Positions 2,813 to 48,477 of a stretch of DNA of 64,000 nt are shown piece by piece. The stretch is from the NCBI GenBank assembly GCA_032718475.1, contig JAUCBJ010005463.1, positions 1-64,000 on the forward strand. The letters are read 5' to 3'. Position 1 is the stretch's first letter; each line of letters starts with the position of its first letter. The notes beneath the pieces were generated by a model. It saw nothing but the letters and a program-made list of their open reading frames with translations. It did no database searches and was not told where the DNA came from. The stretch is from Nemertoderma westbladi. Taxonomy: Eukaryota > Animalia > Xenacoelomorpha. The translations under genes were made by a program, and so were the position numbers.

Positions 2813-4099
2813 TGTAAAAGCTTCTGTGGGATATAACTGGCCCCTTTGCTTCGCAATCCAGTTTCCCCCCAGGCGCTGGAATACTCTAAAAGGGTTCTCT
2901 AACTGTATAAATATTCCCCTCGCCCTCAAGGTACCGTTACAGGTGTTTTAACGGACATAAAAGTCATTCTGCTATATACGTGTTTTAGCGGACATGGTAA
3001 GACAAAAAACCTGCAATGCGACAAATACCTTTCATAGCTTAGCCGTGATGATTCATATTACGACATCTAACAGCTGGTTGCTGACATGGAAACAGCCATT
3101 GGACGCATGGTTCTTTGTTTGGCTTGAACCAATCAGAGCGATTTTTCCTGTCGACGTGTAGCTTTTCGGTCGATCATAAGGAGTGTGTTCAGTCTTACGG
3201 TTTTTTCTTGATACTTTGTTGTTATTGCTGTCTAGGCCAGGAACAACGGCTCTAGAGTCAATTCGTTTCATACTTTTAGAAGAAACATTAGTAGGCTTAA
3301 ATTATAGAGCGTATGACTGTTATCAATTCAATTCAGTCTATATCATAACACATCATATATTAATTTATATCAACTTGTTTCTATTCTTGTATTATCGGTT
3401 CAATATACATTATTATACTGCTGTTTACTATCGTGTTTGGTTGAACATTATTTGGAGAACATCTATAAAGAACCCAAATTTCCCAATTTTCTTGATACAC
3501 TACAGGTTAGAGAGACGGGTTATATATAGCGATTGCGACTTATATTATTGTGGTTTGTAGTGAATTTAATGCTATTTGATAAGCACTACATGAGTCCGTT
3601 GCTGTTCGCTTTATATATGATAAAATTCATTGACGGTCGGCAAATTAGTGAGCAGTATTGTGTGTTACCGGTAGTGTGCATGATTGTGATTGATAACTAA
3701 GCATTTCCTAAAGAATGCGCCTCATACGTGAATCATAAGCCTTACCGACTTACCGTTGTGATTAGTGTAAGTCATATCTCTGTTTACCTAGATAGAGCGC
3801 CACGTCCTAAAGGAACTGTTAATATTTCCCGAAAGTAAATAATATTAGTCAGAAATTAATTATTAACGATCAATCGAATAATACAATACCGTAAGCTTCA
3901 CTGCAATAATAATTTAAGCCCTCAGAATCCAGTCTCCCGGGATTATCCAGCGGGTGAATGGACGCGCACTATGCTGGCTTCTGCTAATGTTGTGTTTATT
4001 GGTATTAAATATTTGTCAACTTCTAAAGTCTATTTATAAACCAAAAGACATATAAATTTTGGCAGGTTAAACTGCTAAAGGTCTTCAAAAGCGCGTACA
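2813..4099 (+). repeat. E1 5' LTR
   Basis: Direct repeat of 14078-15364 (offset 11265). Starts TGTAAAAG and ends GCGTACA. CCAAT box (aaccaatcagagcg, ~3127) is conserved in the E2 LTRs. Confidence 0.97.
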
Positions 4100-4137
4100 A
4101 TAACAGTCATTGACTTTATTGCAGTAAGCAATAAAGT
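4100..4137 (+). promoter_or_regulatory. Non-tRNA primer-binding site (complementary to own LTR 3313-3323) followed by a conserved hairpin
   Basis: 4100-4110 ATAACAGTCAT is the reverse complement of 3313-3323 ATGACTGTTAT. There is no TGG start. Stem ACTTTATTGC/GCAATAAAGT spans 4113-4137. Confidence 0.7.
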
Positions 4138-4165
4138 TGAAAGTACCGGTCAACCGGTAAACCTG

Positions 4166-5045: not shown

Positions 5046-6331
5046 TATGCGATTATTCGCAACATTCATGTCCCCAAGTTTATTCATACAGTAATTGTGC
5101 TTGTTATACATACCGTTATAGTTAAATTAACCCCGGTACTACACGGGCTGCTTGGCGTAGGACAAGACTGGTGACTTTGTGCTCTGGTCACTCCAGCAGA
5201 TGCCGTGGTTCTTTTAACTGTTCAAGTATATTTAACTACTGATTATTTGTTGTACCAGTACTTGTACCTAATTTAGGGTTTAGTGTACAGTGCTTTCCGA
5301 AGTAATTAGTGTGTAGGCAGTATATTTGTGTTGTAAAGTGGTTAATAGGCACGCTGGATCTGGTAGTCCGCGGTAATTAACTTCTAGGTAAGAACACTCC
5401 GTGATACATAATGTAGTACCTATAGCGATACGGCTATAGGTCGTCAGGCGATGGTATTTTCCTATCTGGACAGTGCAATATATTTACTACTACTTATTAT
5501 TTTCAAATACCGTAGTACCCTGTCCGTTGTAATAACCAGAATTCTAACCCTTTGTTAGGCTGGTTTGTAGACTTCCTGTAAAATTACCCTAAAAATTTCG
5601 TACGTAATATTTTTGTTGTGTTTAATTAGAGAATTAATCTCACCCGTATCGTAAGTAATTTGTAGTATTAAGTAACTTAGGAAAATTAGAATTATCTGTT
5701 TTAGTGTCAAATAAATAGCACTTCACTGAGAGCGCACCGCTTCTGTGTAGTGACCCCCCAGAAATAATAACATTTATTTCAAATATTGACAAAACCCTTT
5801 TTAAACGGGTATATATATATTATAAATCAACTCAAACGATTTATATAGTAGGCCTGCCATACAACAACTAGGTCTCAATATCAGTTGGACTACTGCTTAA
5901 ATAGCGGTAATAAAGTAAGTTAAAGTAACCAAGTAACCCTAAAATATTCAGAAATTCAATTATTCTAAAATAATTGACATACCGGTATTTACCATAGGCT
6001 TACTATATTTATTTCTATAAATTTGTGCTGAAAGCATACCGGTATTCTGTAATTAATTCTAGTTCATAATTATACTTATATATACTATAAGTGTAAGCTG
6101 TATACCGGTATTCACGATAGGCCTATTATATATTTATATATATTTGTGCTAAATTTATATACCGGTACTCTGTGACAAAACTAGTTTACAATACTTATAT
6201 ATATTATAAGTGCATACCGGTATTCTAATATACTGCAATAAATTACCGGTACTAGGCCAACGGTCATACTGAATTACTAGACTTGCTTTAACTGTAACTA
6301 TAGCAGTAAGCATTCAACTGTATAGCTAAAC

Positions 6332-9300
6332 ATGTCTGACACTCAGCAAAACCTGTCAGACAGTCTAATCGATACAACCATCTGTGACACAGATAGGAGT
6401 GTTGAGCGATTAAGAAAGGAGTTCAGCTCACCTCCTACTGAAAGAAAGGTCATCCCTCCAGTAGTAGTATCGGACCCTAAGCTAATCCAATACCGTAGGT
6501 CTATCATCGGCACTCGGGCCCAAGTCAAACGGAACCAGGAAGCAGCTGCCCCACAGCAGCAACAGCCTAGTCAAGAAACTTGTTCCCAGCGATCAAATAG
6601 CTCCAGTAGTTCGGATACTGTCGAACTGACCCCCGAACGCGGATTGCAGATGACGGCTAAAGCCTACTCGGACCCCCTTCTCACCCTTCCTGCCGCAGTG
6701 CTAACAACTATATCGATTGCGGTGGAGGAACATCAAGCAGATTGGGCGAGAAATAAGCGAGCGACCCAAGATGATTATGCGGGATACGCCAGGGAAGAAT
6801 TGATGTCTATTGTCGAGTCACAATGGAACTTTCCCGGACCCGGACTCCCGTTAGATCTGTCCGAGGCTACTTGGGAAGATATACACAGGATGGGAGTGGC
6901 TAAAGATATGATGGATCCAGCTGTTTGGAAGAGGTCGGCAGCAGGATATGTGCAGGGATTCTTCGGCTCCTTAGAGAGATTAGAAGAACAACTGTTTCGA
7001 CAACCCCAAGGACCTCAAGAGCAGGAAGAACTGCTATATCAAGTACGCGAAAGAACCCTACGCTTTCGACTAATCCTATCAGCTTTTGAGGAAACTTCCA
7101 AAAGAAGACAGGACACGTCACTGCAGGTTGCTGTCAAAACTTGGTTCCAGCGGGTAGGTCTCCAAGTACAAGAAACAGACCAGTGGAAATCCCAACTGTC
7201 TGAGAGACTAACTTATGAAGAACCAACCGATGCCACCCTTTCTCAAGTGGAAGGCGAAGAGACCTCAGAGAAACCACGAACGAGAGACGCCATAGACATT
7301 TATCTGTCCGACTATCAGCGATTCCTAGGAGACGAAGAATTGAGCAGACGGCTGTCTGGACTTTCCCCCAATAGTGAAGGAACCCAGCGTGTGTTAGATT
7401 CAATCGATGCTGAAATGTTAGCGGCTAACCAAGCCGAGTTTGATGAAAAACTTCGCCTCACTAGAGTCCAAGAAGAACTAGTAAAGAAAAAACGGATAGA
7501 GGACAAAAGGGCAGTGGCAGCGGCCAAAGCGGCAGCGTCAGTAGAAGAGGCAAAGGCGGCAGCGGCAGTGGAAGCGGCAAAGGCAGTAGCAGAAGCAAAT
7601 GCTGCAGCAACAGTGGAAGCAGCCAAAGCAGCAGCAGCAATAGCATTGGCAGACGCGGAACAGAGAGCGTCTGAAGAGACCACCCAACTGGAGTTGGAGA
7701 ATCTGCAAGAGACGCAAGACAACATAAATAAACAGTTAACTGCTAGTCACATGCAGATGATGAGAAAATCTACTCCCAAACGCCAGGGCTATACTTCATC
7801 GGAGGAAAGCGAAACCACCGATCCTGAAGGCGGAGGAAATAGATCTCGTCTAAGCAGGCGTAGAAAAACATCTTACCGTCACAAATTGCCTGATTTGCCT
7901 CCAGCTGTTAGAAGACAACTAGCTAACACAGACTTAAGTAGTATAGAACCTACAGACCAAACTATTCAGGTCAAAAGACTCCCAACAATAGTTGATGAGC
8001 CTGAAATAATTAGGCCTGTCGTTCCAAAAGTCACACCTGTGCTAGAGACCCCTGTACTTCCAGAGCTTAACTCTAAGTTCCCTTTACACAGTACTACACT
8101 GCCTGTACCCGGTAGAACAGTCCATGAGAATATCCCTGTCCTGGAAGCTGAGAGAGAAATCAAAGATTTGTCTCCCGTCGTCCCGCGTCAGCCCGCTACA
8201 ATGTTGGCGACTCCCGCTGCGGCGGTCGAGTGGGTAGAAGAGGGACGGCGGGGGATGAACCTCCTGCTCGGACAGATGCAGGAGACTGTCCACCAGCTTA
8301 AGGGAACAGTAAGGGAAGGTAGGGCAGAATTGCAAGAAGTACAGCAAAGTATCGCACTGGAACGCGACAAATTAGTCAATATACAAAAAGGCATACCAAT
8401 ACCCCCTGTAACATTGTGTCAACCTGTTAGGTCTGAAGTATTACATGCGCAAGGTGTGGAGCCTACACGCATCTATACTGCTAGTGAAGTTGAAACTCCT
8501 ATAGCAAACCCTATTAAGGGTGATTATAGACCTGTTATTAATGATATCCCCTATAGACCTGACAATGATCCGAGAAATTTATATACCGATAATTCGATAT
8601 TAAATAACACGATGGCCCAAGAAAGCTTTACGCGTCAGATGGCTAGAACAGAAGCCCGCCAAGCGGTCAAAGTGGGAGAGATCGTCAAATTCAATGGAGA
8701 TGAGATGAAATGGTTACCTTTCAACGAATATTACAAAGACAGCATACAGAACTCTGTGCTATCTAACGGAGAGAAACTTAGGTTCCTCATCAAGTGCTTG
8801 GAAGGACCTCCCAAGTTAATTGGACATCCAGAAGGATTAAGACAAGTTTGGGATACATTAAACATCAGGTATGGTAACAAGGATAACATAGCTAAGTATT
8901 TGTATGCAAAATTAGTAGCCCCCCGACACTTCCTTAGTAGCGGGATTATAGAGTTTTCCAATGAAATTCAGGAGATCTGTAGACAATTGGACTGGTTAGG
9001 TAAGTCTCATGAATATCAGAGTTCAATGGTTATTGGAGCCGTAGTCTCTACTTTACCAAAGGGTGGAGTATGTACACGCTGGGACAAGAAAGTGTTGTAC
9101 ATGAATGAACAACAACGACGAAGTCCTACCATGGCTGATCTCATGTCCTTCTTAGATAGTGAAGTAAAATTACAACTCATAAAGCAGTCCAGAGAGAAAA
9201 CATCGGAAAATAAGGTAAGTGAGAAACCCGTTTCTAGGAGAAGGATAATACCAGTGTGTTATACTGACGATGGCGAAAGCCAAGCTTCTCAAGAAGAGGA

Positions 9301-10918
9301 CAGCGGGAAAGACACAGCAAAATCTTACTATGACAACAAGACCTATAAAGACGTAAGTAAATACAAGTCTCGAACCAGTGACAGGAGAGAACAGGTAACA
9401 ACAACTCCTCCTACGTCTCCTAAGAGAATTCACGGAAGAAAGCCCGAAGAAAGAACGAGAGTGCATAACGTTACCCAAGGTAAGGTGAGTAACATCAAAC
9501 CAAAATGTGCGCTGTGCGACGGGCCCCACCGTTTGAGTGCGTGTGCTGAATTTCTAAAGAAATCCCTTGTAGACAGACATACAGTCCTGTGGAATAAGCG
9601 GTTATGCTATAATTGCCTCAGATCAGGACACCAACGGCGAACCTGTTACTCCGACATAAAGTGTGCAAAGTGTGGCGCGAAACATCACATCTTGTTACAC
9701 AGTGAGTTCGAACGAGACAAACAGAGTCAGGTAAGTGAGCCCGAACTACATGTCCAATTCAGTGATGTAAATGACACTGATCAGGAGTCTGAGATGGAAG
9801 GATTCTATACTGACGAATTCTCCGACGCCAACGAATCCTGTTATCTAATCAATACCGCAATGTATCGAGCACTTACTTATGGAAAGGACACCAACAATGA
9901 GTTTCCCCCAACTACTTTTGCTCCAACTTCCAACGTAGGAATCAGAGAATTTCCTGTAGTGCAGGTAAGAGTTCACGGTCCTAACAAAAGTTACATAGTG
10001 AACGCCCTCCTTGACTCCGGCAGCACAGGAACATTCATCGATCAAGAACTAGCCGAAGATATCTTTGCTGGACAACCCAAATTCCGGACTAAATTAAATA
10101 TGTCAGGAATTATGCAGGTTTGGGAATCTACCCTAACGGCAGACTACTATGTAGGTGTGTTGTCCACCCCCCAGGATAAATTAGGAGCACAAGGTATAAG
10201 GTCGGTAAAAATGGTGGCTATAAAGAACTTCGCTACTACCCAAGCAGACCTTTATAATTGGGACGAGGATGAGAGCATCCAACATCTTAAGATACCTCGA
10301 TTCCAGACAGATTATCCTGGAGTGCAAATACTCATTGGCCAAAACGCGCATGAGGCGCTCGAGACATTGGAGAAACGGCCTGCTCAACCGCAGCCACTAC
10401 AAACCTATGCGGTAAGAACTAGAGTAGGTTGGTACTTCACTGGCCCTTCCCGTAGAACTCTCAAAGAGAGATTACCTCAACAACAGGTATACCAAGTAAA
10501 CGAATGGGAAGTGGAGAGCAGTGATGTGGACGATCCAACTGAGGGAACACCATACTCCTCAGATAATGACGATATTAACTCCAATGTAGATCAATGGAGA
10601 CATTGCCTCGGGACGATTAATCCAGCCGACATTGCTTCCAGAGGAGCAACTCCTCAAGAACTGATAGATAATCCAGGCTGGTTAGGTGGATCCGACTTCT
10701 TAAGTAAAGAAGAAGAAGAATGGCCTCCTCATCTTACCCCGGTGAAGATTAGACAGACCAAGGGAGCGGAGAAAGTAACACAACAACTAAATCGCCCAGC
10801 TAGTCGTTTATGTTTACTGGAAAGAGACCGAAAACTGTCCGGAAACTATGGAAGGCAAGATACTCTTCCTACGACCACTTCCCTAATCCGACAAATATCT
10901 AGGGACTCCATAACGTAA
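6332..10918 (+). CDS. BEL/Pao Gag-protease polyprotein with in-frame deletions of RT, most of RNase H and integrase
   Basis: 1528-aa ORF. It has the Pao gag core (KFNGDEMKWLPF...EKLRFLIKCLEG), three Cys/His motifs (CALCDGPHRLSAC, CYNCLRSGHQRRTC, CAKCGAKHHILLH) and protease ALLDSGS. After that come only an NPADIASRG block and the integrase C-tail (LNRPASRLCLL). Confidence 0.93.
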   Translation: MSDTQQNLSDSLIDTTICDTDRSVERLRKEFSSPPTERKVIPPVVVSDPKLIQYRRSIIGTRAQVKRNQEAAAPQQQQPSQETCSQRSNSSSSSDTVELTPERGLQMTAKAYSDPLLTLPAAVLTTISIAVEEHQADWARNKRATQDDYAGYAREELMSIVESQWNFPGPGLPLDLSEATWEDIHRMGVAKDMMDPAVWKRSAAGYVQGFFGSLERLEEQLFRQPQGPQEQEELLYQVRERTLRFRLILSAFEETSKRRQDTSLQVAVKTWFQRVGLQVQETDQWKSQLSERLTYEEPTDATLSQVEGEETSEKPRTRDAIDIYLSDYQRFLGDEELSRRLSGLSPNSEGTQRVLDSIDAEMLAANQAEFDEKLRLTRVQEELVKKKRIEDKRAVAAAKAAASVEEAKAAAAVEAAKAVAEANAAATVEAAKAAAAIALADAEQRASEETTQLELENLQETQDNINKQLTASHMQMMRKSTPKRQGYTSSEESETTDPEGGGNRSRLSRRRKTSYRHKLPDLPPAVRRQLANTDLSSIEPTDQTIQVKRLPTIVDEPEIIRPVVPKVTPVLETPVLPELNSKFPLHSTTLPVPGRTVHENIPVLEAEREIKDLSPVVPRQPATMLATPAAAVEWVEEGRRGMNLLLGQMQETVHQLKGTVREGRAELQEVQQSIALERDKLVNIQKGIPIPPVTLCQPVRSEVLHAQGVEPTRIYTASEVETPIANPIKGDYRPVINDIPYRPDNDPRNLYTDNSILNNTMAQESFTRQMARTEARQAVKVGEIVKFNGDEMKWLPFNEYYKDSIQNSVLSNGEKLRFLIKCLEGPPKLIGHPEGLRQVWDTLNIRYGNKDNIAKYLYAKLVAPRHFLSSGIIEFSNEIQEICRQLDWLGKSHEYQSSMVIGAVVSTLPKGGVCTRWDKKVLYMNEQQRRSPTMADLMSFLDSEVKLQLIKQSREKTSENKVSEKPVSRRRIIPVCYTDDGESQASQEEDSGKDTAKSYYDNKTYKDVSKYKSRTSDRREQVTTTPPTSPKRIHGRKPEERTRVHNVTQGKVSNIKPKCALCDGPHRLSACAEFLKKSLVDRHTVLWNKRLCYNCLRSGHQRRTCYSDIKCAKCGAKHHILLHSEFERDKQSQVSEPELHVQFSDVNDTDQESEMEGFYTDEFSDANESCYLINTAMYRALTYGKDTNNEFPPTTFAPTSNVGIREFPVVQVRVHGPNKSYIVNALLDSGSTGTFIDQELAEDIFAGQPKFRTKLNMSGIMQVWESTLTADYYVGVLSTPQDKLGAQGIRSVKMVAIKNFATTQADLYNWDEDESIQHLKIPRFQTDYPGVQILIGQNAHEALETLEKRPAQPQPLQTYAVRTRVGWYFTGPSRRTLKERLPQQQVYQVNEWEVESSDVDDPTEGTPYSSDNDDINSNVDQWRHCLGTINPADIASRGATPQELIDNPGWLGGSDFLSKEEEEWPPHLTPVKIRQTKGAEKVTQQLNRPASRLCLLERDRKLSGNYGRQDTLPTTTSLIRQISRDSIT

Positions 10919-12547: not shown

Positions 12548-13999
12548 ATGACGGAGTTGATAGAAGATGATCTTGGTATCAGGGAGCGATATACTCTACC
12601 TTTGCCAGCATTTGTGGATAGCTTGATACGCGGTGAAACCGATCCAACCATTACGGAGGACGATGGTCGTTATATCGAACCGCCGATGTCCCAAGAGCAA
12701 CTTACGCGTGAATTGGACTAGCGAAAATTCACCTCTCGCTATACGCATCGTAATGGTACGTATATGGACTTCCTAACTACCGGCCATCCTATCGATTTAC
12801 ATGATACGGACGATGTAGACACCGAAAGGGAAATGGTTCTATTTAAATATCATACCCAGCGGAGTCGTAACGATAAACCGAGAATAGATCACGAAAATTC
12901 TATTCGTAACAGACTGGGAAGACGAACCAATATGCCTAGAATCTGAGGAGATTCAGCCTATCGCGCCCGGAACAGCGACAACGACTACATCATAGAATGG
13001 TATCAAGGTCCACAGTGTCTCACTGCGTACGATTATCGACATGCCAACTATGTTTCTAGGCAACGTTGTCGGTTATGCGCATCGAGAGACCATGTTACGC
13101 CCATGGACACAAACGTCGTCCGCTGTTCCTATTTCCACGAACAACCGGCGATGGAAATTTATTGCGTGTATTGCAGACTCAATAACTTGCACATTTTTGC
13201 GGTTTGCCCTCAATTTATGACTCAATGTCACCATTGTCAACTAAAGGGACACGCCAGTTTCGATTGCCCTTTTGATCACAACTTGGAAAGCGTAGATGAA
13301 ATGATCACACTACGTTACATCAGAGCTTGTGAAGCGAACGCTGATTTACATTGTGATTCGCGCCATCATTATTATCCTGGACGCGCTTACGAAGGAATTT
13401 ATGCGTTCCATCCTTATCTATTCGCTTCTGTCGAACAGAAATCACGCATATCGAGTTACGAACTACTGAAGCGCGTCGGAGAATGTATTTCAACTAAATT
13501 CGTACGCAAATTTCTCAGGAGTGTTAATCCTAGCGACCTTCATTCCTCTAACTTAATCAATTATATCCGTCAGGATCCGGACTATGGAGACTTGTTTGTT
13601 AACTCACACCCCGAGTTACAGGAAGTACATCGACGGCCTTACGAATACCGAGCCCGCGAACGCGAGTTGGAAAGGACCATTAAACCCCGGAGGTTTCTAA
13701 CTGCCTATGGTCCACCCACGGCCCTCGTTCAGACCACTCGTAAAGGACCCGTAAGAGCGGCTGTCTTGAAACGAGCTCTCAAAGCCGTTAGACCCCTCTC
13801 CCCGGACGTTGATGTCAATCAACCCGGTACTTCGACTGGCGGATACACCGACCATAATCCTACACCCTCTGATGCAATCATATTGCACCCTTCACCCAGG
13901 AGTTATAGCCCTCCTTGTAAAGTGGCTCGCCCCAAAGAGAAAAGGACTCTGGCTAGCTTTAAAAAACTGCGTAAACGCCGTCCGCGCAAGAAAGACTAA
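12548..13999 (+). pseudogene. E1 3' extra ORF (unknown protein with three zinc-knuckle-like motifs), two in-frame stops
   Basis: One frame from ATG 12548, with TAG at 12719 and TGA at 12944. Motifs CRLCASRDH, CVYCRLNNLHIFAVC and CHHCQLKGHASFDC. Basic C-terminus KKLRKRRPRKKD. Homologous to E2 28145-29861. Confidence 0.8.
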
Positions 14000-14077: not shown

Positions 14078-15364
14078 TGTAAAAGCTTCTGTGGGATATA
14101 ACTGGCCCCTTTGCTTCGCAATCCAGTTTCCCCCCAGGCGCTGGAATACTCTAAAAGGGTTCTCTAACTGTATAAATATTCCCCTCGCCCTCAAGGTACC
14201 GTTACAGGTGTTTTAACGGACATAAAAGTCATTCTGCTATATACGTGTTTTAGCGGACATGGTAAGACAAAAAACCTGCAATGCGACAAATACCTTTCAT
14301 AGCTTAGCCGTGATGATTCATATTACGACATCTAACAGCTGGTTGCTGACATGGAAACAGCCATTGGACGCATGGTTCTTTGTTTGGCTTGAACCAATCA
14401 GAGCGATTTTTCCTGTCGACGTGTAGCTTTTCGGTCGATCATAAGGAGTGTGTTCAGTCTTACGTTTTTTTCTTGATACTTTGTTGTTATTGCTGTCTAG
14501 GCCAGGAACAACGGCTCTAGAGTCAATTCGTTTCATACTTTTAGAAGAAACATTAGTAGGCTTAAATTATAGAGCGTATGACTGTTATCAATTCAATTCA
14601 GTCTATATCATAACACATCATATATTAATTTATATCAACTTGTTTCTATTCTTGTATTATCGGTTCAATATACATTATTATACTGCTGTTTACTATCGTG
14701 TTTGGTTGAACATTATTTGGAGAACATCTATAAAGAACCCAAATTTCCCAATTTTCTTGATACACTACAGGTTAGAGAGACGGGTTATATATAGCGATTG
14801 CGACTTATATTATTGTGGTTTGTAGTGAATTTAATGCTATTTGATAAGCACTACATGAGTCCGTTGCTGTTCGCTTTATATATGATAAAATTCATTGACG
14901 GTCGGCAAATTAGTGAGCAGTATTGTGTGTTACCGGTAGTGTGCATGATTGTGATTGATAACTAAGCATTTCCTAAAGAATGCGCCTCATACATGAATCA
15001 TAAGCCTTACCGACTTACCGTTGTGATTAGTGTAAGTCATATCTCTGTTTACCTAGATAGAGCGCCACGTCCTAAAGGAACTGTTAATATTTCCCGAAAG
15101 TAAATAATATTAGTCAGAAATTAATTATTAACGATCAATCGAATAATACAATACCGTAAGCTTCACTGCAATAATAATTTAAGCCCTCAGAATCCAGTCT
15201 CCCGGGATTATCCAGCGGGTGAATGGACGCGCACTAGGCTGGCTTCTGCTAATGTTGTGTTTATTGGTATTAAATATTTGTCAACTTCTAAAGTCTATTT
15301 ATAAACCAAAAGACATATAAATTTTGGCAGGTTAAACTGCTAAAGGTCTTCAAAAGCGCGTACA
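14078..15364 (+). repeat. E1 3' LTR
   Basis: Near-identical to 2813-4099, preceded by the PPT and followed by TSD TTTGG. Confidence 0.97.
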
Positions 15365-26050: not shown

Positions 26051-28144
26051 TCATTAACGGTGCCCCATAAAAGTATTCCTGTAAATATGTCATTGAAACA
26101 CATGGTTAGGGAGATTAACCAATAATTGTTTAAGAGTTTTAAGATCCCTGGAGGTAGACCATCTACACACCCGCCGATTTTGAGGCGTCGATTTTAAATT
26201 TCGCTAGACATTTGGCAACTTAATTTGGGTTTATTTCATCTAAAATAGGAATTACAGTCTCAATTGGACCTATTTTATTGTTTACAACGTCTTGAAGGGT
26301 TTAGAGAGATTTCCTTGCAGTTAACAGTTCCTCATATTGCAATCAAGACGTACTATATACAAGGCCATGCCATCGAGTTAACTGGGGGCGGTGACTGGGG
26401 GCAAGATTTTTTTTCAGTATGAGTTCCTCATATTGCATTCCAGATCGATTTTGAGTCACCTTTGCTTGCTAACCAATGCCATCTGCTTTCAGACTTCTTA
26501 TTACTCTGGCTGCGGTTAGCCATAGTGTATGTAACTGTCTCGGTGCTTTGACTTAGCTTAGACTTGATTAAAGAATTAGTTATCTTTGAATGCACTGCAT
26601 CACCCCCTATTGGAGCAGGGTTTTCATTCAAATGGGTCTTAAACTTGAGGTGATTGATTGAATTGTATGACAGTTTTGTTCGCGCTTTTAGACCTTAGCA
26701 GTTTAACCTGCCAATTTTAGTTGTCTTCTTGTTTATAAATCGACTTTAGCCTAGACCAATTATTTAGTGTACTAAAGTTACATCCGCCGAAGCCAGTCTG
26801 TGCGCGATCATTCACCCACAGTTAAGGGAGACTGGATTCGGGCGCTTTGAAAGTTATTGCTGTGCAGACCTACTGTATTATTCGATTGATCGTTGTTCGC
26901 GGTTTTAGACCTTTAGCAGTTTAACCTGCCAAATTTAGGTGTCTTCTAGGTTATATATCGACTTTAGCCTATAACAAGTATTTGATACACATAAAGTTAC
27001 ATTAGCCGAAGCCAGCCTATGCGCGATCATTCACCCACGGTTAAGGGAGACTGGATTCGGATGCTCTGACCTTATTGCGGTGTAGACCTACTGTATTATT
27101 CGATTGATCGTTACTATAATATCTCTGACAAATATTATTCACTTTCGGGAAATATTAACAGTTCCTTTAGGACGTGGCGCTCTAAGTATGTAAACAGAGT
27201 TATGACTTACACTAGACACAATGGGATGGCTATTGATTTTCGTATAAGGCGCATTCTTTAGGAAATGCTTTGTTATCTATCACACTCATGCACAATACCG
27301 CACACTGCTGCACACTGATCTGCCGACCTTCACTAATTTTAATCATATATAAGGAGAACAGCAACTGACACATGTAGGGTCTATGAAATAGCATTCATTT
27401 CACTCCAAAACCACTATAATGTGAGTCGCAATTGCTATATGTAACCGGTCTCTCTAACCTTCAGTATATCAAGAAGATTGGGGTTTTCTGATTATTCATC
27501 GATATTCTCCAAATATAACAACATTTCATCAAATGATAACACTTAATAACCGACAGTAAATAGCAGTAAAATAATGCGGTGAAAGGTCTGTAATGCATTG
27601 AATTATGTCGTGATGTACTGATAACAGTTATACGTTTCTATGATCAAAGCCGTTCTAATGTTTGGCTAAAGTCTGAAACACAGAATAATTCCACAGCCGA
27701 TGTTCTGGGCTCAGGAAAAAAGGTAAACAAAGACCATAATGCATTGCGCGATTTCCCGGAGGCTTCTGTTCAAATAAAATGAAAATCGCTCTGATTGGTC
27801 GAGCCGAACAAAGAACAAAGAAAAGCTCTACGTGGACATATCAGCTGATAGATGTCGTCATCTGAACTACACTGTATCAAGAGTATTTTGGCGTATTGCG
27901 GCATAAAATCGCTAGTTATGTCCGCTAAAGTACACATACAGAAAAATGGCTTTTTATGTCCACTAAAACACCTATACAGTAAGAAAACGGCTTTTTATGT
28001 CCGCTAAAACACCTACAGAGTACTTTGCGGGAAAAATGACTAGCTAGATCCGCAAAAGCCTTTACACCGCTCCCAGAAAATGGGATTTAATTCTATAAAA
28101 TATAAAAAATCACAGTTTCTAAAATATAAAAATACTCTAAACAG

Positions 28145-33040: not shown

Positions 33041-36000
33041 TCACGTTGGGGAGTCCCTAGATGTTTGTTGGATTAGGGAGGTGGTCGTGGGAAGAGTATC
33101 TTGCCTTCCATAGTTTCCGGAGAGTTCTCTGTCTCTTTCCAGTAAACATAAACGACCAACTGGGCGATTGAGCTGCTGTGTCTCGAAGACAATTCCCGGT
33201 TTCTTAAAGTTACGTCGCATGACGACGAGTTCTACCGATCGCACCAAACCATCATCCGAGATATGAGTCTCGATGATACGACCTGTCTGCCACCGCTTAC
33301 GTGGAAGATCTAAGTCCACAATAAGGACCATGTCTCCGGCGCTGACGTTTTCTTGCTGCGCGAACCACTTAGTTCGAAGTTGTAGCGTAGGCAGATAATG
33401 TTTTTCGAAATGGTCAGCGAAACGACGGGATAACAACTGCATAAGTTGCCAAGTTTGCCGGCAGTATTCGTCTCCGTCCTTGATTTCCGATCATGGGAGC
33501 ATGGCTACAGGTTTCTTCAGTAGGAAGTGCGCGGGTTTTAGCGCTTCCAGGGAATCGGGACTCGATGAGACTGGCATAAGCGGTCTCTCGTTGAGATAGG
33601 CGGCGATTTCCTCCATTAACGTCCGCAAAAGTTCGTCGGTGAGATACGCGCGGCACGGCACTATAAAGTGAAATGCAGTCTTCACGCTCCTGATTAATCT
33701 CTCCCAACTTCCTCCCCACCAAGGGGCGCGGCGTTGAAGGTCCAGCTAGACACTGTTACCCTTAGCTGATCGTCCACCTGTCTTTGGTTCCAATCTTTGA
33801 CGTAAGCCTTGATTTCATTGTTGGCACCAATGAAGTTCGTTCCCTTATCAGATCTCAAAGTGTTACTAGTTCCAAAGCGAGCGATCTGTCGGCGTAAGCT
33901 CAATATGAAGCTATTGGTAGATAAATCGTTCACCATATCGAGATGGATAGCTCTACAAGTCATACAGACAAAGATGACACACCATCTCTTGACTATAGTC
34001 CTAGCACGATATACTTCAATAGGGCCAAATAAATCCACACCGGTATTAGTAAAGGGTGGTTCATAGAAGCTTACTCGTTCCCTAGGTAATTCTGCCTCTC
34101 GCTGTGTTAAAGGCCTACTGAATGCTTTCCTACAGGGTATGCAGTTCCTAAGAACTTGGTTCAGAGCTCTACGGGGTTTATGAAAATAATAGCGAGTTCG
34201 AATTTCGCTAAGAACTCGTTCTCTACCAGCATGATAAAGCTTACTGTGAACATCTACAATCATCTTGATTTGTATTTCAAGATTTCTAATGAGTATGGGA
34301 AACTTAGTGTCAAAGGATAATGGAGCATTAGTTACTCTTCCTCCAACACGTATTAACCCATCTATCATTGTGCTAGAGAAACGATCCCTTAAGCGCATCT
34401 GTGGATTTCTCAACAACAGGAAATACTTATCGGAATCCTCATAGCATTGCAGGAGTCTCAGTATCTGCTTATTGGTTTCTTCATGCTCCTGGTAACTGAT
34501 CTTCTCCTTCAGAAACCTGTCGGATATCTTGTATTTGGGAAGATCTTTAACAACATGGACCTGCGCAGATGTCAGTGGAGCGGTATCACTAGTGGTCTTC
34601 GTCCTGGAGTAGTGATGATGAAAACATCGCTTTAAATATGTAACGGCCTTACAGAGCCGATTCCAGGAACTATAATGATGTATCGCTCTCTGCAGGAGAG
34701 GTGAGAGTCCTTGCGAGATGTCTGGTATTCCAGATTTCCAATCCCTCTCTCTGATTTCCACAACAGACTTATTTGTGGCTGTGGGTTTCGGATCCAAAGC
34801 GTCGTCTCCGGAAGTGTGTAGTACAGACAGATCTACCACAGGTTTAAATAACTTCGATTTACTCGCCCGAGTTTTAGGTTTGACTTTCTCCGCTCCCTTG
34901 GCCTGTCTAATCTCCGCCGTAGTAAGATGAGGAGGCCATTCATCCTCTTCTTTGCTTAGGAAGTCGGGTCCACCTAACCAGTCTGGAGTATCTATCAGTT
35001 CTTGTAGAGTTGCTCCCCTGGAGGCGATGTCGGCTGGATTAATCGTTCCGGGGCAATGTCTCCATTGATCTATCTTCGTGCGACTAAGTATAATGGCTAC
35101 TCTGTTGGTAAAGAAGACGCTGAACTGACAGACTTCATTGGTTATATACTCCAACACGAGTAAAGCGTCGGTCCAATAGACAGTTTTCTCCAGGGGATAG
35201 TCGATCTGTTCTGTTACATTCCGGCCGATGGCTGTAGCGTATAGAGCCGCTTTTAACTCCGCTCGAGGAACTTTCAACTTGTTGTTTATCAATGCCTTAG
35301 AGGTAACTAAGGCGACTTTGATTCCGTCCGGAGTTTCCACCCTTAGGTAGGCTACTATACCGATTCCCATATCGCTGGCGTCTCCAAACACATGGAGTTG
35401 ATATGAATACGTAGGGAGAACATGACCAAAATATGAACGGGAAATTATAAAGTTTTCGATGGCTGGTAGAGAATCTTCCCATTTCATCCACTTCTTTAAT
35501 AGTTCTCCCTTAAGTGGATCGTCCCATGAGTGGTTTTAAAGCCACATTTGTTATACTAAACTCCGAGCAATCAATATAACTGGGCTAATAAATCCCAATG
35601 GATCGAAATAAGTGCTCAGGATACTTAGACAAATCCATTTAGTCCGAACTGGATTATCTCGCTGTTTTAGCTGGAAAAACAGGATATCTCTCTCCGTGTC
35701 CCATTTCAAACCAAGCGTCTTGGTTTCTGGAAGATCGTCCTTGATAAGGTCTAGATCTTTAACTCCTCGGTCTTCTACCGGGATCGATTCCAGAAACTCA
35801 CGGGAGTTGCTGGTGAATTTAGTTAATCGAAATCCACCTCTTTTCAAGCACTCTACCGTTCCTTTGGCGACAACAATGGCCTCTTCCACCGATGGGAGGG
35901 ACTTTAAATTGTCGTCCATGTATATATCCCGTTTGATGTTGTCGATAACCTCTTTAGAGAAGGCGTCCCGGTTGTCATCAGCAGTGGTGCGCACTACTGA

Positions 36001-38742
36001 GCAGGCGTTTGAAGGGCTCGAGATGATCCCAAAAGCCTGGATGGTCATCCAGTACTCCACCGGTTTCTGGTTGAAGTCTCCTTCAGGCCACCACAGAAAT
36101 CGTAGGCTGTCTCGATCTCTATCCAGCGCCTTAACTTGTAAGAACATGCCTTCTATATCCGAGGCAAAGGCGATCGAATATTGTCGTAATCTTAAGAGTA
36201 TTCCCAACAAGGATTGTAGTAAGTTGGGTCCTGGCAACAACTCGGAGTTAAGGGATTGGCCCATGTAGAGGGCGGAGCCGTCAAATACTACCCGGACTTC
36301 GTTGGGTTTACCGGGTTTGGGAACGTAATGGTGTGTTAAATAGTACGTTCTCTCAGTTATGGGTGTTCCTTCCGGTACTCGCTCCGCATATCCCTTGTCA
36401 ATGAATTTCTTCAGCTGGGTCTTGTACATCTCCTTAGCTGAAGCATTTGCCGTAAGGCGTCGATGTAGTTGCGCAATTATCTTCTCCGCCAAGGGTCGGT
36501 TGCGGATAAAACCCGTTCTTAGACCCGTTCTTTGGGTAACCTTTCCATGAGAGTTCTACGGGAAGGGCCAGTAAAGTACCAGCCTACTCTAGTTCTTCCC
36601 GCATAGGTTTGTAGTGGTTGCGGTTGAGCAGGCCGTTTCTCCAATGTCTCAAGCGCCTCATGCGCATTTTGGCCGATGAGTATTTGCACTCCAGGGTAGT
36701 CTGTGTTGAATCTAGGTATCTTATGCTGCTGGGTGAAATTGTCCTCATCCCAGTTATAAGGTTCCACTTGGCTGGTAGCGAAGTTCTTTATCGCCACCAT
36801 TTTTACTGACCTTATACTGTGTTCTCCTAGTTCATCCTGGGGGGTGGACAACGCGCCTACATAGTAGTCTGTAGTGACTGTGGATTTCCAAACCTGCATA
36901 ATTCCTGACATATTCAACTTGGTTCGGAACTTGGGTTGTCCAGCAAAGATGTCTTTGGCTAGTTCCTTGTCGATGAATGTTCCTGTGCTGCTGGAGTCAA
37001 GGAGGGCGTTCACTATATAGCTCTTTTCAGGCCCGTGGACTCTCAACTGCACTACGGGAAATTCTCGGATTCCTACGTTGGAAGTTGGTGCTTTCCAAGA
37101 TGGTTGTCGGTCAGGAGTAGTTAGGGGGAGCTCACTGTCGGTTTCTTTCTCATACGTAAGTGCTCGATACACTGCGGTATTTATTAGGTAACAGAATTCG
37201 TTTTCGTCGGAGAATTCATCCATATAGAATCCTTCCATCTCAGAACTTTGATCAGTGTCGTTCACATCACTGAATTGGACATGTAGTTCGGACTCACTTA
37301 CCTGACTCGGGCTGTTTCTTTCGAATTCAGTGTGCAACAAGATATGTTTCGCGCCGCACTTTGCACACCTTGCGTCGGAGTAACAGGTTCGCCGTTGCTG
37401 TCCTTGTCTGAGGCAATTATAACACAACCGCTTATCCCACATGACTTCACGTCTATCTTTTAGTGACTTCTTTAAAAATTCATCACACGCACTTAAACGG
37501 TGGGGCCCGTCACACAGCGCACATTTCGGTTTGATGTTACTTACCTTACTTTGGGTAACGTTGTTCGTTCGTTCCTCGGGCTTTCTTCAGTGAATTCTCT
37601 TAGGAGACATAGGAGGAGTTTTTCTTACCTGTTCTCTCCTGTCATTGGTTCGAGACTTAAATTTACTTACGTCTTTAGACGCTTTGTTGACATAGTAAGA
37701 TCTTTCAGTGTCTTTCCCGCTGTCCTCCTCTTGAGAGGCCTGGCTTTCGCCGTCGTCTGTATAACACACTGGTGTTACCTTTCTCCTAGAAACGGGTTTC
37801 TCACTTACCTTATTTTCCGGTGTCTTCTCTCTGGACTGCTTTAGGAGCTGTAGTTTTACCTCTCCATCTAAGAATGACATGAGATCAGCCATGGTAGGGT
37901 CTCTTCGTTGTTGTTCCATCATATATAACACTTTCTTATCCCAGCGTGTACCTACTCCACCCTTGAGTAAAGTAGATGCTACGGCTCCAATAACCATAGA
38001 ACTCTGATATTCATGAGACTTACCTAGCCAATCTAATTGTCTACAGATCTCTTGAATCTCATCGGAAAACTCTATAATCCCGCTGCTAATGAACTTTCGG
38101 GGGGCTACAAATTTTGCATACAAATACCTAGCTATGTTATTCCTATTATCATACTTGATGTTTAGTGTATCCCAAACTTGTCTTAATCCATCTGGATGTC
38201 CAATAAACTTTAACGCCATTAACTTGGGAGATCCTTCCAAGCACTCGATGAGGAATCTAAGTTTCTCTCCGTTAGATAGCACCGAGTTCTGTATGTTATC
38301 TTTGTAATATTCATTAAAAGGTAACCATTTCATCTCATCTCCATTGAACTTGACGATCTCTCCCACCTTTACCGCTTGACGGGCTTCGGTTCTAGCCATT
38401 TGACGCGTAAAACTTTCTTGGGCCATCGTGTTATTTAATATCGAGTTATCGGTATATAAATTTCTCGGATTATTATCAAGTCTATGTGGAATATCATTGT
38501 CAACATGTTTATAATTACCCTTAATAGGGTTTACTATAGGAGTTTCCACTTCACTAGCAGTATAGATGCGTGTAGGCTCCACACCTTGCGCATGAAATAC
38601 TTCAGACCTAACAGGTTGACACATTGTTACCGGGGTTGGTGGTATACCCATTTGGGTATTTACTAATTTCGCTTACGTCCTTCTGGGCTCCTCCCCGAGG
38701 CGCAGCCATGAGGCGGACGCTTTTCCACTACCCTTGGGGCCA
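33041..38742 (-). pseudogene. E2 pol copy 2 (gag C-half, PR, RT, RNase H, integrase) with stops, frameshifts and a 417-bp deletion
   Basis: RT IYMDD, RNase H LHVFGDAS, WTDA and NPAD, integrase HSKLYH...CIPC, GVDLFGP and SDKGTNF, C-terminal DUF5641-like LQLRTKW...DDGLVRSV. Confidence 0.92.
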
Positions 38743-41700
38743 GTATGGGAAACTTAGTGTCAAAGGATAATGGAGCATTAGTTAGTCTTCCTCCAACACG
38801 TATTAACCCATCTATCATTGTGCTAGAGAAACGATCCCTTAAGCGCATCTGTGGATTTCTCAACAACAGGAAATACTTATCGGAATCCTCATAGCATTGC
38901 AGGAGTCTCAGTATCTGCTTATTGGTTTCTTCATGCTCCTGGTAACTGATCTTCTCCTTCAGAAACCTGTCGGATATCTTGTATTTGGGAAGATCTTTAA
39001 CAACATGGACCTGCGCAGATGTCAGTGGAGCGGTATCACTAGTGGTCTTCGTCCTGGAGTAGTGATGATGAAAACATCGCTTTAAATATGTAACGGCCTT
39101 ACAGAGCCGATTCCAGGAACTATAATGATGTATCGCTCTCTGCAGGAGAGGTGAGAGTCCTTGCGAGATGTCTGGTATTCCAGATTTCCAATCCCTCTCT
39201 CTGATTTCCACAACAGACTTATTTGTGGCTGTGGGTTTCGGATCCAAAGCGTCGTCTCCGGAAGTGTGTAGTACAGACAGATCTACCACGGGTTTAAATA
39301 ACTTCGATTTACTCGCCCGAGTTTTAGGTTTGACTTTCTCCGCTCCCTTGGCCTGTCTAATCTCCGCCGTAGTAAGATGAGGAGGCCATTCATCCTCTTC
39401 TTTGCTTAGGAAGTCGGGTCCACCTAACCAGTCTGGAGTATCTATCAGTTCTTGTGGAGTTGCTCCCCTGGAGGCGATGTCGGCTGGATTAATCGTTCCG
39501 GGGCAATGTCTCCATTGATCTATCTTCGTGCGACTAAGTATAATGGCTACTCTGTTGGTAAAGAAGACGCTGAACTGACAGACTTCATTGGTTATATACT
39601 CCAACACGAGTAAAGCATCGGTCCAATAGACAGTTTTCTCCAGTGGATAGTCGATCTGTTCTGTTACATTCCGGCCGATGGCTGTAGCGTATAGAGCCGC
39701 TTTTAACTCCGCTCGAGGAACTTTCAACTTGTTGTTTATCAAGGCCTTATAGGTAACCAAGGCGACCTTGATTCCATCCGGAGTTTCAACTCTCAGGTAG
39801 GCTACTATACCTATTCCCATATCGCTGGCGTCTCCAAACACATGGAGTTGATAGGAATACGTAGGGAGAACATGACCAAAATATGAACGGGAAATTATAA
39901 AGTTCTTGATGGATGGTAGAGAATCTTCCCATTTCATCCACTTCTTTAATAGTTCTCCCTTAAGTGGATCGTCCCATGAGTGGTTTTAAAGCCACATTTG
40001 TCAAAGCCACTAAACTCCGAGCAATCAATATAACTGGGCTAATAAATCCCAATGGATCGAAATAAGTGCTCAGGATACTTAGACAAATCCATTTAGTCCG
40101 AACTGGATTATCTCGCTGTTTTAGCTGGAAAAACAGGATATCTCTCTCCGTGTCCCATTTCAAACCAAGCGTCTTGGTTTCTGGAAGATCGTCCTTGATA
40201 AGGTCTAGATCTTTAACTCCTCGGTCTTCTACCGTGATCGATTCCAGAAACTCACGGGAGTTGCTGGTGAATTTAGTTAATCGAAATCCACCTCTTTTCA
40301 AGCACTCTACCGTTCCTTTGGCGACATCAATGGCCTCTTCCACCGATGGGAGGGACTTTAAATTGTCGTCCATGTATATATGCCGTTTGATGTTGTCGAT
40401 AACCTCTTTAGAGAAGGCGTCCCGGTTGTCATCAGCAGTGGTGCGCACTACTGAGCAGGCGTTTGAAGGGCTCGAGATGATCCCAAAAGCCTGGATGGTC
40501 ATCCAGTACTCCACCGGTTTCTGGTTGAAGTCTCCTTCAGGCCACCACAGAAATCGTAGGCTGTCTCGATCTCTATCCAGCGCCGTAACTTGTAAGAACA
40601 TGCCTTCTATATCCGAGGCAAAGGCGATCGAATATTGTCGTAATCTTAAGAGTATTCCCAACAAGGATTGTAGTAAGTTGGGTCCTGGCAACAACTCGGA
40701 GTTAAGGGATTGGCCCATGTAGAGGGCGGAGCCGTCAAATACTACCCGGACTTCGTTGGGTTTACCGGGTTTGGGAACGTAATGGTGTGTTAAATAGTAC
40801 GTTCTCTCAGTTATGGGTGTTCCTTCCGGTACTCGCTCCGCATATCCCTTGTCAATGAATTTCTTCAGCTGGGTCTTGTACATCTCCTTAGCTGAAGCAT
40901 TTGCCGTAAGGCGTCGATGTAGTTGCGCAATTCTCTTCTCCGCCAAGGGTCGGTTGCGGATAAAATTGGGTTCTTGCCGTCGGAAGGGCAGACCAATCTC
41001 ATATCTACCTTGATCTTTAAGAAAACGTGTAGTCGTTTCTTGTATCTGCTTGGCTCTTTCATCTTCTACCGATAGGGCCTTATCGTAGGAATTGGGCTCT
41101 ACAGCCTCTTGAGTAAAGAATCGTACGGCGTGTTCATCCCGAGTCTTCGCGTTGTAGCGATCTATCACTTCATTCAGTTCGTCGTTATAGTCGACTTGTC
41201 CTGCTGGATGAATGAGGTGACATAGGTTCACTTGGTTTTGCCAAGTTTCGTTTTCCGTAAGGAGTTCGATGGTATTCTCCTCGTCGAAGAGTTGGTGGAT
41301 ATCGTCATTATCTGAGGAGTATGGTGTTCCCTCAGTTGTGTCGTCTACCTCACTGATCTCCTCTTCCCATTCACTTACCTGGTAGACCCGTTCTTTGGGT
41401 AACCTTTCCATGAGAGTTCTACGGGAAGGGCCAGTAAAGTACCAGCCTACTCTAGTTCTTCCCGCATAGGTTTGTAGTGGTTGCGGTTGAGCAGGCCGTT
41501 TCTCCAATGTCTCAAGCGCCTCATGCGCATTTTGGCTGATGAGTATTTGCACTCCAGGGTAGTCTGTGTTGAATCTAGGTATCTTATGCTGCTGGGTGAA
41601 ATCGTCCTCATCCCAGTTATAAGGTTCCACTTGGCTGGTAGCGAAGTTCTTTATCGCCACCATTTTTACTGACCTTATACTATGTTCTCCTAGTTCATCC

Positions 41701-43531
41701 TGGGGGGTGGACAATGCGCCTACATAGTAGTCTGTAGTGACTGTGGATTTCCAAACCTGCATAATTCCTGACATATTCAACTTGGTTCGGAACTTGGGTT
41801 GTCCAGCAAAGATGTCTTTGGCTAGTTCCTTGTCGATGAATGTTCCTGTGCTGCCAGAGTCAAGGAGGGCGTTCACTATATAGCTCTTTTCAGGCCCGTG
41901 GACTCTCAACTGCACTACGGGAAATTCTCGGATTCCTACGTTGGAAGTTGGTGCTTTCCAAGATGGTTGTCGGTCAGGAGTAGTTAGGGGGAGCTCACTG
42001 TCGGTTTCTTTCTCATACGTAAGTGCTCGATACACTGCGGTATTTATTAGGTAACAGAATTCGTTTTCGTCGGAGAATTCATCCGTATAGAATCCTTCCA
42101 TCTCAGAACTTTGATCAGTGTCGTTCACATCACTGAATTGGACATGTAGTTCGGACTCACTTACCTGACTCGGGCTGTTTCTTTCGAATTCAGTGTGCAA
42201 CAAGATATGTTTCGCGCCGCACTTTGCACACCTTGCATCGGAGTAACAGGTTCGCCGTTGCTGTCCTTGTCTGAGGCAATTATAACACAACCGCTTATCC
42301 CACATGACTTCACGTCTATCTTTTAGTGACTTCTTTAAAAATTCATCACACGCACTTAAACGGTGGGGCCCGTCACACAGCGCACATTTCGGTTTGATGT
42401 TACTTACCTTACTTTGGGTAACGTTGTTCGTTCTTTCCTCGGGCTTTCTTCCGTGAATTCTCTTAGGAGACATAGGAGGAGTTTTTCTTACCTGTTCTCT
42501 CCTGTCATTGGTTCGAGACTTAAATTTACTTACGTCTTTAGACGCTTTGTTGACATAGTAAGATCTTTCAGTGTCTTTCCCGCTGTTCTCCTCTTGAGAG
42601 GCCTGGCTTTCGCCGTCATCTGTATAACACACTGGTGTTACCTTTCTCCTAGAAACGGGTTTCTCACTTACCTTATTTTCCGGTGTCTTCTCTCTGGACT
42701 GCTTTAGGAGCTGTAGTTTTACCTCTCCATCTAAGAATGACATGAGATCAGCCATGGTAGGGTCTCTTCGTTGTTGTTCCATCATATATAACACTTTCTT
42801 ATCCCAGCGTGTACCTACTCCACCCTTGGGTAAAGTAGATGCTACGGCTCCAATAACCATAGAACTCTGATATTCATGAGACTTACCTAGCCAATCTAAT
42901 TGTCTACAGATCTCTTGAATCTCATCGGAAAACTCTATAATCCCGCTGCTAATGAACTTTCGGGGGGCTACCAATTTTGCATACAAATACCTAGCTATGT
43001 TATTCCTATTACCATACCTGATGTTTAGTGTATCCCAAACTTGTCTTAATCCATCTGGATGTCCAATAAACTTTAACGCCATTAACTTGGGAGATCCTTC
43101 CAAGCACTCGATGAGGAATCTAAGTTTCTCTCCGTTAGATAGCACCGAGTTCTGTATGTTATCTTTGTAATATTCATTAAAAGGTAACCATTTCATCTCA
43201 TCTCCATTGAACTTGACGATCTCTCCCACCTTTACCGCTTGACGGGCTTCGGTTCTAGCCATTTGACGCGTAAAACTTTCTTGGGCCATCGTGTTATTTA
43301 ATATCGAGTTATCGGTATATAAATTTCTCGGATTATTATCAAGTCTATGTGGAATATCATTGTCAACATGTTTATAATTACCCTTAATAGGGTTTACTAT
43401 AGGAGTTTCCACTTCACTAGCAGTATAGATGCGTGTAGGCTCCACACCTTGCGCATGAAATACTTCAGACCTAACAGGTTGACACATTGTTACCGGGGTT
43501 GGTGGTATACCCCTTTGGGTATTTACTAATT
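38743..43531 (-). pseudogene. E2 gag-pol copy 1 (gag C-half, PR, RT, RNase H), truncated before integrase
   Basis: ORFs 39960-43487 (LLDSGS, IYMDD) and 38663-39937 (RNase H) are near-identical to copy 2. Confidence 0.92.
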
Positions 43532-43536
43532 TCGCT

Positions 43537-44532
43537 TATGTCCTTCTGGGCTCCTCCCCGAGGCGCACCCATGAGGCGGACGCTTTTCCACTACCCTTGG
43601 GGCCAGTCCGACTCCGTTTTTATCAGACCGGGCCGGAGGGTAGCCCGATGCTTCCCGGGTTCAATTTTCAATCCCCCGATCACACAGGCACAGCTCGTCG
43701 TGTGTAGCCGAAGAATAGATGTTCGCCTACTGTCAACTTACTGTGGCCTGGCTGTACATTGAGCCAACTCAGAGAGTCAACCGGCGGGTGGACCAGTCGA
43801 TAGCAATCGAGTATCAAGGTCGCCCTTGAGCCAAACCGACGGTCTTGTCCCATGTGGGCTTGCACTACCCAACATGGAATATTGACACGTTTTCACCCGC
43901 CTCGCCGGCAGTATTGAGGGGAAGTCGGTTCCGCCAACAATACTGACTAGCTTAAAAGCTAAGAACAAGTCACCACTTACTAGTCACTGTACACGTGTAC
44001 TCAATAGATGCTCACGAAATCAAGTACACAACGGTAAACACAAAATCGGACACATACTATGCACACACAGAAGACATAATCGGGAAAGACAAAATTGGGG
44101 TCAAAATCAGAGGGGACAAAATTGTATCGACTGATAAAAGAGTCGAGAGTACCTTATTTTGCCGTCAGGGCAAAATAACTTTGTGTGCACAAAGTATGCT
44201 GGGGCGCAGTAAAGATATGGTCCTACTAATAACCGGCGGCGACTGAACCAACCGGCAAGGTTTCCCACACTCACTCGCAGTGGCCACACTCACGTCCACA
44301 CACAAACCACAGATCACACTAAGCCACCACCCCTACTGTGTACAGGACTAGCAGTACGGCAACAGGCCGACTATACGGTACCACGGCACCATGTTGATTC
44401 ATGGTTCGCAAGACACGAGGGCCTTCAGTAACTCCCCTGCACTATATAGAGTATTTAAAGTGCCCCCAGACCCTCACGAGTCCGCCGCCGCCTGTTCGCG
44501 ACACCCCTATAGAGACCTCACCTCTTTGGGAA
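43537..44532. mobile_element. ~1-kb unclassified non-coding insertion in E2 gag
   Basis: Interrupts gag between VQQSIVLES and LVN. Flanked by direct repeat TCGCT(T). No TG..CA ends and no evident TIRs. Confidence 0.8.
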
Positions 44533-48436: not shown

Positions 48437-48477
48437 CTTTATTGCCTACGTTGCAATAAAGAAATTATAACTGTTAT
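48437..48477 (-). promoter_or_regulatory. E2 non-tRNA PBS and hairpin
   Basis: Element-sense ATAACAGTTATA (48466-48477) is complementary to LTR 49204-49215. Stem CTTTATTGC/GCAATAAAG spans 48437-48461. Confidence 0.7.

Follow-up and report, generated by a model that had tools for sequence, protein, structure and literature searches.

Two LTR retrotransposons of the BEL/Pao superfamily, E1 and E2, found in the animal Nemertoderma westbladi, probably use their own transcript as the primer of reverse transcription in the style of Tf1, instead of the end of a tRNA. The element type, the LTR ends, the lack of a TGG, a perfect complement to the LTR whose first base directly follows U5, and one compensated base pair can be seen directly in the DNA. 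Judged by their sequences, most testable relatives appear to build their primer across a splice junction, with E1 and E2 being the contiguous form. The broader picture, which we favor with some reservation, is that a widespread lineage of animal BEL/Pao elements dropped tRNA priming, that LTR exons joined by the spliceosome mostly serve as primer in this lineage, and that E1 and E2 represent an intron-free, Tf1-like contiguous form of it. This would be a known mechanism, new in a family defined as tRNA-primed, and the relatives point to a stranger, splice-built primer.

Three members of one BEL/Pao family

The window, i.e., the whole stretch of 64,000 nt that was analyzed (N. westbladi contig JAUCBJ010005463.1, positions 1 to 64,000, forward strand), includes one LTR family with three members, E1, E2, and E3, which were identified by self-alignment (Table 1). 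E1 is flanked by a 5-bp TSD (2808-2812 and 15365-15369) and its LTR pair exhibits three differences across 1287 nt; the insertion is recent and its TSD intact. Although very young, E1 lacks the RT, most of the RNase H and the integrase core in its coding region (6326-11185), and it is a non-autonomous copy that retained the self-complementary PBS. Its ORF starts with an unusually long N-terminal extension of ~780 aa ahead of the DUF1759 Gag domain (6326-8690) and is preceded by a leader of ~2.2 kb with short tandem duplications at 4463-5042. For the additional ORF near the 3′ LTR no Pfam match was found, and its Atlas matches were below the evidence level, none of them being convincing. The counterpart of this region in E2 is broken.

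E2 has its own 5-bp TSD, and its gag-pol region contains a duplication of ~4.5 kb plus several insertions. It is nested in E3 (26677-50562), an older solo LTR of the same family which was split by E2. The site in E3 that is homologous to the inferred primer sites (50196-50186) differs from those of E1 and E2, and no PBS remains in E3.

Table 1. Positions of the features of E1, E2, and E3 in the window.
Feature	Position	Strand	Remarks
E1 5′ LTR	2813..4099	+	1287 nt, TG...CA ends
E1 LTR site, inferred self-primer	3313..3323	+	11 nt; begins at the A after a CGT conserved in E1, E2, and E3
TATA-like box	3612..3619	either strand	conserved in E1, E2, and E3; ~300 nt downstream of the site
U5 stem-loop	4058..4079	+	~20 nt before the LTR end; sequence in E1, E2, and E3; hairpin predicted in E1 and E2
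E1 PBS position	4100..4110	+	no TGG; perfect complement of 3313-3323; starts at the first base after the LTR
Post-PBS hairpin	4113..4137	+	predicted 10-bp stem directly after the PBS; E2 retains the stem, loop changed
E1 ORF	6326..10918	+	Gag with DUF1759 and zinc knuckles behind a long N-terminal region; protease fused to an RNase H remnant
E1 extra 3′ ORF	12947..13999	+	350 aa, Cys/His knuckle-like motifs, sense, ahead of the 3′ LTR
E1 3′ LTR	14078..15364	+	primer-site copy at 14578-14588
Solo LTR E3, 3′ part	26677..26893	-	own 5-bp TSD follows
E2 3′ LTR	26894..28066	-	primer-site copy at 27621-27632
E2 gag-pol, interrupted	33694..46610	-	Gag, PR, RT, RH/Peptidase_A17, integrase zinc finger; internal duplication
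E2 PBS position	48466..48477	-	TGG lacking; perfectly complementary to 49204-49215 in the E2 LTR
E2 5′ LTR	48478..49648	-	1171 nt
E2 LTR site, inferred self-primer	49204..49215	-	12-nt match
Solo LTR E3, 5′ part	49649..50562	-	~75% identical to E2; E2 inserted into E3

A Pfam search of E1 and E2 yielded DUF1759, Peptidase_A17 and Integrase_H2C2 above the cut-offs, and E2 contains the YMDD motif of RT. The closest RT homologues (best of 277) are BEL/Pao polyproteins of marine animals with 41-44% identity and the same Pfam set. Together with the TG...CA ends of the LTRs and the TSDs this corroborates the assignment to BEL/Pao made in an earlier note on this DNA. As the family Belpaoviridae is delimited by RT phylogeny, both elements stay BEL/Pao by their proteins despite a PBS that is not of the tRNA type. 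The ICTV profile of the family gives an 18-nt PBS, priming by tRNA-Arg/Gly and a size of 4.2-10 kb (PMC8742986), which agrees with the statement of the same note that BEL/Pao elements are described as tRNA-primed. E1 and E2 resemble this description in the gag-PR-RT-RH-IN order of their domains, the TG...CA LTRs, the 5-bp TSD and the animal-type homologues. They differ from it in that no TGG, and hence no tRNA-type PBS, follows either 5′ LTR, and in that E1 exceeds the size range with 12.5 kb.

Two other features of the window lie outside this family. A second LTR element (17859-25134) has 534-nt repeats with 97.8% identity and encodes an aspartyl protease in a minus-strand ORF, and an ORF at 1785-2396 has a weak match to DUF6451 under the Pfam cut-off.

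A PBS complementary to the element's own LTR

The sequence directly after the 5′ LTR is in both elements the perfect reverse complement of a stretch of the element's own LTR. The complement begins at offset 0, with the 3′ end of the LTR segment pairing with the first base after U5. This arrangement had been described in the earlier note for both elements and could be reproduced in full, and the copies of the site in the two 3′ LTRs match as well. According to the LTR alignment, the sites of E1 and E2 are homologous to each other. The sequence criterion for self-priming of the Tf1 type is a complement of ~10-11 nt located 0-5 nt after the LTR; the matches found here are 11 nt (E1) and 12 nt (E2) long. 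When the LTRs were resampled with a Markov-1 model, matches of this quality at offsets 0-4 occurred in 35 of 20000 cases for E1 and in 21 of 20000 for E2. Internal positions of the elements had an equal LTR complement in 4 of 9939 (E1) and 3 of 20368 cases (E2), and no shuffled PBS attained the observed match (0/300 for each element).

The PBS is flanked by a predicted U5 hairpin and a predicted post-PBS hairpin, in E1 and E2 alike. Tf1 has a U5 inverted-repeat stem-loop next to its PBS. No tRNA gene was found in the 64-kb window, and the sole match of the Rfam search (E = 0.83) was far from significance. Viral contigs included neither a match to the LTR pattern nor an RT relative.

Between the duplexes of E1 and E2 a single pair differs, being G-C in E1 and A-T in E2. 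Both LTRs of each element carry the base that matches the element's own PBS, with both E1 LTRs having the G opposite the PBS C. The calculated duplex energies of the own pairs are -12.4 kcal/mol (E1) and -10.1 kcal/mol (E2). The E1 site forms a G-U wobble with the E2 PBS (-10.2 kcal/mol), and only the reverse cross, the E2 site with the E1 PBS, contains a mismatch (-7.5 kcal/mol). The earlier note had taken this covariation as an argument for self-priming. It is true that both partners change at this position, but a single pair with a tolerated G-U intermediate is weak evidence alone. Self-priming as such is still the best explanation, now backed by the pattern in the relatives. In contigs from public runs that cover 3200-4250, the E2-type T at 4108 accounts for 73% (X1) and 100% (X3) of the summed depth among the matches listed.

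Relatives with a PBS that matches a predicted splice junction

Relatives were fetched by an RT alignment of 30 sequences. From metagenome contigs the best 80 of 561 confirmed loci were taken and from genome contigs 17 of 17; many of these loci come from similarly named assemblies and are therefore not independent samples. Both LTR 3′ ends were available for 10 loci of the metagenome set, where L046 was dropped as a duplicate of L047, while L023, L039, and L044 were left out with ends that were unclear or at the contig end. The genome-contig set provided both ends for 4 of 17 loci; in this set L096 is decayed and the repeats of L089 are not LTRs. The resulting test set comprises 13 BEL/Pao loci with LTR ends fixed independently by the LTR pair.

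The junction was first noticed by eye and then searched for exhaustively among all GT-AG pairs. In 10 of the 13 loci (L007, L009, L022, L033, L047, L057, L070, L084, L085, and L087) the PBS is a perfect complement, 11-15 nt in length, of a GT-AG junction in the own LTR. Of each match, 5-8 nt lie beyond the acceptor and 3-9 nt ahead of the donor, the introns being 76-451 nt long. The other three loci are each different: L081 has a junction match of 11 out of 12 nt with one mismatch, L041 a contiguous match of 10 nt (a length that 1 of 300 shuffles reached), and L038 a TGG and thereby a tRNA-type PBS, without any self-complement.

A search that asked only for GT and AG placed all best junctions (7/7) on consensus donors with T-rich CAG/TAG acceptors, with consensus donors making up only 41 of the 720 GTs across the 13 LTRs. 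In L084 a non-consensus GT was tied for the best match, the same 11 nt being obtained with the consensus donor that is homologous. The observed junction lengths were attained by 0-1 of 500 shuffles per value, and with five pairs of decoy dinucleotides the matches in the seven loci of the GT and AG search were 0-9 nt long. When the PBS of one element was compared with the LTR of another, matches of at least 11 nt occurred in 6 of 210 pairs, all of them within L007, L009, and L033, which share one PBS. L084 and L085 differ in two PBS bases and likewise in the two matching exon-end bases of their homologous donor, which sits 340-450 nt from the acceptor. As the junction exists only in RNA, it argues against roles at the level of DNA; as it moreover pairs just after U5, priming by the element's own transcript is the simplest reading.

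A blind scan could be applied to 77 of 97 loci, the remaining 20 having too little upstream DNA. Junction matches of at least 11 nt were present in 32 of the 77 loci (24 of 56 RT families) versus 7 of 77 when the opposite strand was scanned. The best matches of L031, L037, and L044, which are among these 32, do not lie at the LTR end and are probably due to chance. The corresponding scan for contiguous matches remained at control level (50/77 vs. 53/77 in the control), which is why L050 (10 nt) and L067 (11 nt), both called contiguous, are treated as leads only. In the RT tree, L067, whose LTR end is not independently fixed, is sister to the splice-type loci L072-L074 with an SH-aLRT value of 96. 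This neighborhood hints at a possible switch from the splice type to the contiguous form. E1 and E2 themselves are not of the splice-junction type, as their consensus donors give 0 and 4 nt and their match is contiguous. The same tree (81 rows, quick method, no outgroup) does not place E2 firmly: it has a branch of 1.81 and shares an open fork with rows of the splice type, the contiguous type and the tRNA type. As E2 is long-branched and unplaced, and the tree has no outgroup, it gives no evidence of a common ancestry with the splice-type elements.

Some further observations were made on these loci. The paired PBS starts with GT or AT in 8 of the 10 splice-type loci and with AT in E1 and E2, so that one end of the primer, or one site of cleavage, may be preferred. 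The related loci L039 (1-200) and L041 (1-240) exhibit contiguous LTR complements by eye, with one paired base different and with the end of L039 unfixed. L081-L097 are BEL/Pao contigs inside bacterial MAG assemblies, where they probably represent contamination from animal hosts.

Alternative primers, proposed mechanism and wider meaning

Self-priming from the near LTR copy would demand an RNA that includes the site, and promoter-like motifs were found by LTR comparison both upstream and downstream of the site in E1. Upstream, the motif at 3129..3133 (+), which we take to be a CCAAT box, lies ~180 nt before the site within a block that is conserved in E1, E2, and E3. Downstream, the TATA-like box, if read on the plus strand, could start transcription near 3645. 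In that case the site would be part of U3 and only its copy in the 3′ LTR would enter the genomic RNA, where it would pair with the PBS over ~10 kb, circularizing the genome, or would prime in trans from a second packaged RNA. We regard this as unlikely. It is true that the box is present in all three LTRs and is followed by an initiator-like sequence ~35 nt downstream, and folding does not give robust support for a short-range duplex. The predicted probability of the duplex is ~1 for an RNA that begins at the site and extends 60 nt beyond the PBS, at most 0.06 in E1 with a 5′ extension of at least 20 nt, and 0 in either element once the 3′ tail measures 300 nt (5 of 9 starts being computed for the longer tail). 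However, the box fits either strand, further conserved blocks accompany the CCAAT block upstream of the site, and a cut in U3 would presumably lose the 3′ R that is required for strand transfer. A second start would also not exclude a start upstream of the site, as Tf2 has, according to excerpts of PMC5341516, both a downstream start that cannot sustain reverse transcription and an upstream start with the self-primer included. A donor-like AG|GT at 3503-3511, conserved in E1, E2, and E3 and ~180 nt downstream of the primer site, could serve subgenomic mRNAs.

The remaining alternatives question the role of the LTR site itself. An internal tRNA fragment or another small host RNA might act as primer, with the LTR complement being vestigial or serving as a structural lock; Ty1/copia elements are known to use half-tRNA primers (PMC6317226, in excerpt), and the C/T difference between the PBSs of E1 and E2 is compatible with one RNA that pairs as G-C or G-U. 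Yet this idea, which appears quite improbable, explains neither the perfect LTR complement nor the fact that the relatives have differing PBSs, each of which matches its own LTR junction. Very little can be said in favor of a spliced primer in E1 and E2 as well, in which a GT within the site would act as donor and the AG at 3504-3505 as acceptor, the contiguous match being partly incidental. With such a junction the match at offset 1 is 10 nt long in E1 and 11 nt long in E2, but this is at chance level (reached by 17/300 and 12/300 shuffles, respectively), the donor is non-consensus and missing in E3, and consensus donors yield, at best, the 0 and 4 nt mentioned above. Least credible of all, and indeed extremely improbable, is a chance match that E1 and E2 inherited. 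The two elements are homologous and hence not two independent draws, and the LTR is AT-rich, but chance amounts to about 1-2 per 1000 for one element, and the compensated change, the lack of a tRNA-type PBS and the pattern in the relatives count against it as well.

For self-priming by the element's own transcript, the following course of events can be proposed. The genomic RNA of E1 would start at or upstream of 3313, and the LTR site would anneal to the PBS, with the U5 and post-PBS hairpins flanking the duplex and a loop of ~780 nt (E1) or ~730 nt (E2) between site and PBS. This loop is much longer than the 81-203 nt in the splice-type relatives, which counts against the proposal. The RNase H of RT would make its cut immediately 3′ of the duplex and thereby free a 3′ end that would be extended into U5; in the case of E1, which has no RT, RNase H and RT would have to be supplied in trans. 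In retroviruses the primer is copied during plus-strand synthesis, and for Tf1 a study by Atwood-Moore from 2006 reportedly deals with this step. If plus-strand synthesis copied the primer here, it would thereby rewrite the PBS, which could explain the perfect Watson-Crick match of site and PBS. In most testable relatives, an intron spliced out of the 5′ LTR transcript would assemble the primer, which would then be cut just after the junction. Strong-stop DNA ending just past the junction would jump to the unspliced 3′ LTR, and this may be the reason why the intron survives in the LTR. A spliced copy of the 3′ LTR, in turn, would yield an intron-free contiguous form like that of E1 and E2.

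Self-priming was shown for Tf1, in which bases 1 to 11 anneal to the PBS and RNase H cleaves behind base 11 (PMC7175516, in excerpt), in line with the earlier note. The available parts of PMC6317226, PMC4600332, PMC3601003, and PMC6934838 report it for the Tf1/sushi group and predict it for Tcn1 and TAR copia elements. E1 and E2 share with Tf1 and Tf2 of Schizosaccharomyces pombe, Tj1 and Tf1/sushi elements a PBS directly after the 5′ LTR that is not of the tRNA type. They also share the complement to an 11-nt LTR stretch in an orientation for priming into U5 (excerpts of PMC7175516, PMC4600332, and PMC5341516). They differ from this group in their LTR length of 1.2-1.3 kb, their loop of ~730-780 nt and their pol, which is of the BEL/Pao type (Peptidase_A17, DUF1759) and not that of a Ty3/gypsy chromovirus, which characterizes the Tf1/sushi lineage. 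By the sequence criterion E1 and E2 would thus resemble Tf1 in self-priming, yet they stand outside the Tf1/sushi lineage. The predicted splice-junction primer of their relatives is absent from the descriptions of the Tf1 group as far as these excerpts go. TAR (Houba, Osr-1) elements of Ty1/copia and Tcn1 chromoviruses are similar in that self-priming was predicted from sequence, with a complement of at least 10 nt located 0-5 nt after the LTR (PMC6317226, in excerpt). Unlike E1 and E2 they belong to other superfamilies and to plant hosts, and no splice-built primer is described in the same excerpts.

Within BEL/Pao, a term look-up in three surveys found no discussion of the PBS in the text covered (PMC3118150, PMC6238403, and PMC554778, the latter mentioning PCR primers only), and the covered text of PMC8220671 mentions the PBS only generically. 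In the openly accessible literature that was searched, which included the ICTV profile, neither self-priming nor a primer built by splicing was found described for BEL/Pao, in keeping with the earlier note, whose author knew of no such description for Belpaoviridae.

If the proposed mechanism is true, BEL/Pao would be the third superfamily with self-priming, after gypsy and copia, which would bear on the question of whether hairpin priming or self-priming is ancestral or convergent (raised in the available part of PMC3601003). Annotation that relies on the PBS would then miss many BEL/Pao elements. The elements would be independent of the tRNA supply and, by extension, might escape silencing by 3′ tRNA fragments that are directed against the PBS. 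A splice-built primer in the relatives would connect pre-mRNA splicing with reverse transcription in a new way and would also explain the persistence of an intron in the LTR, and replication of these elements would depend on splicing one LTR copy but not the other.
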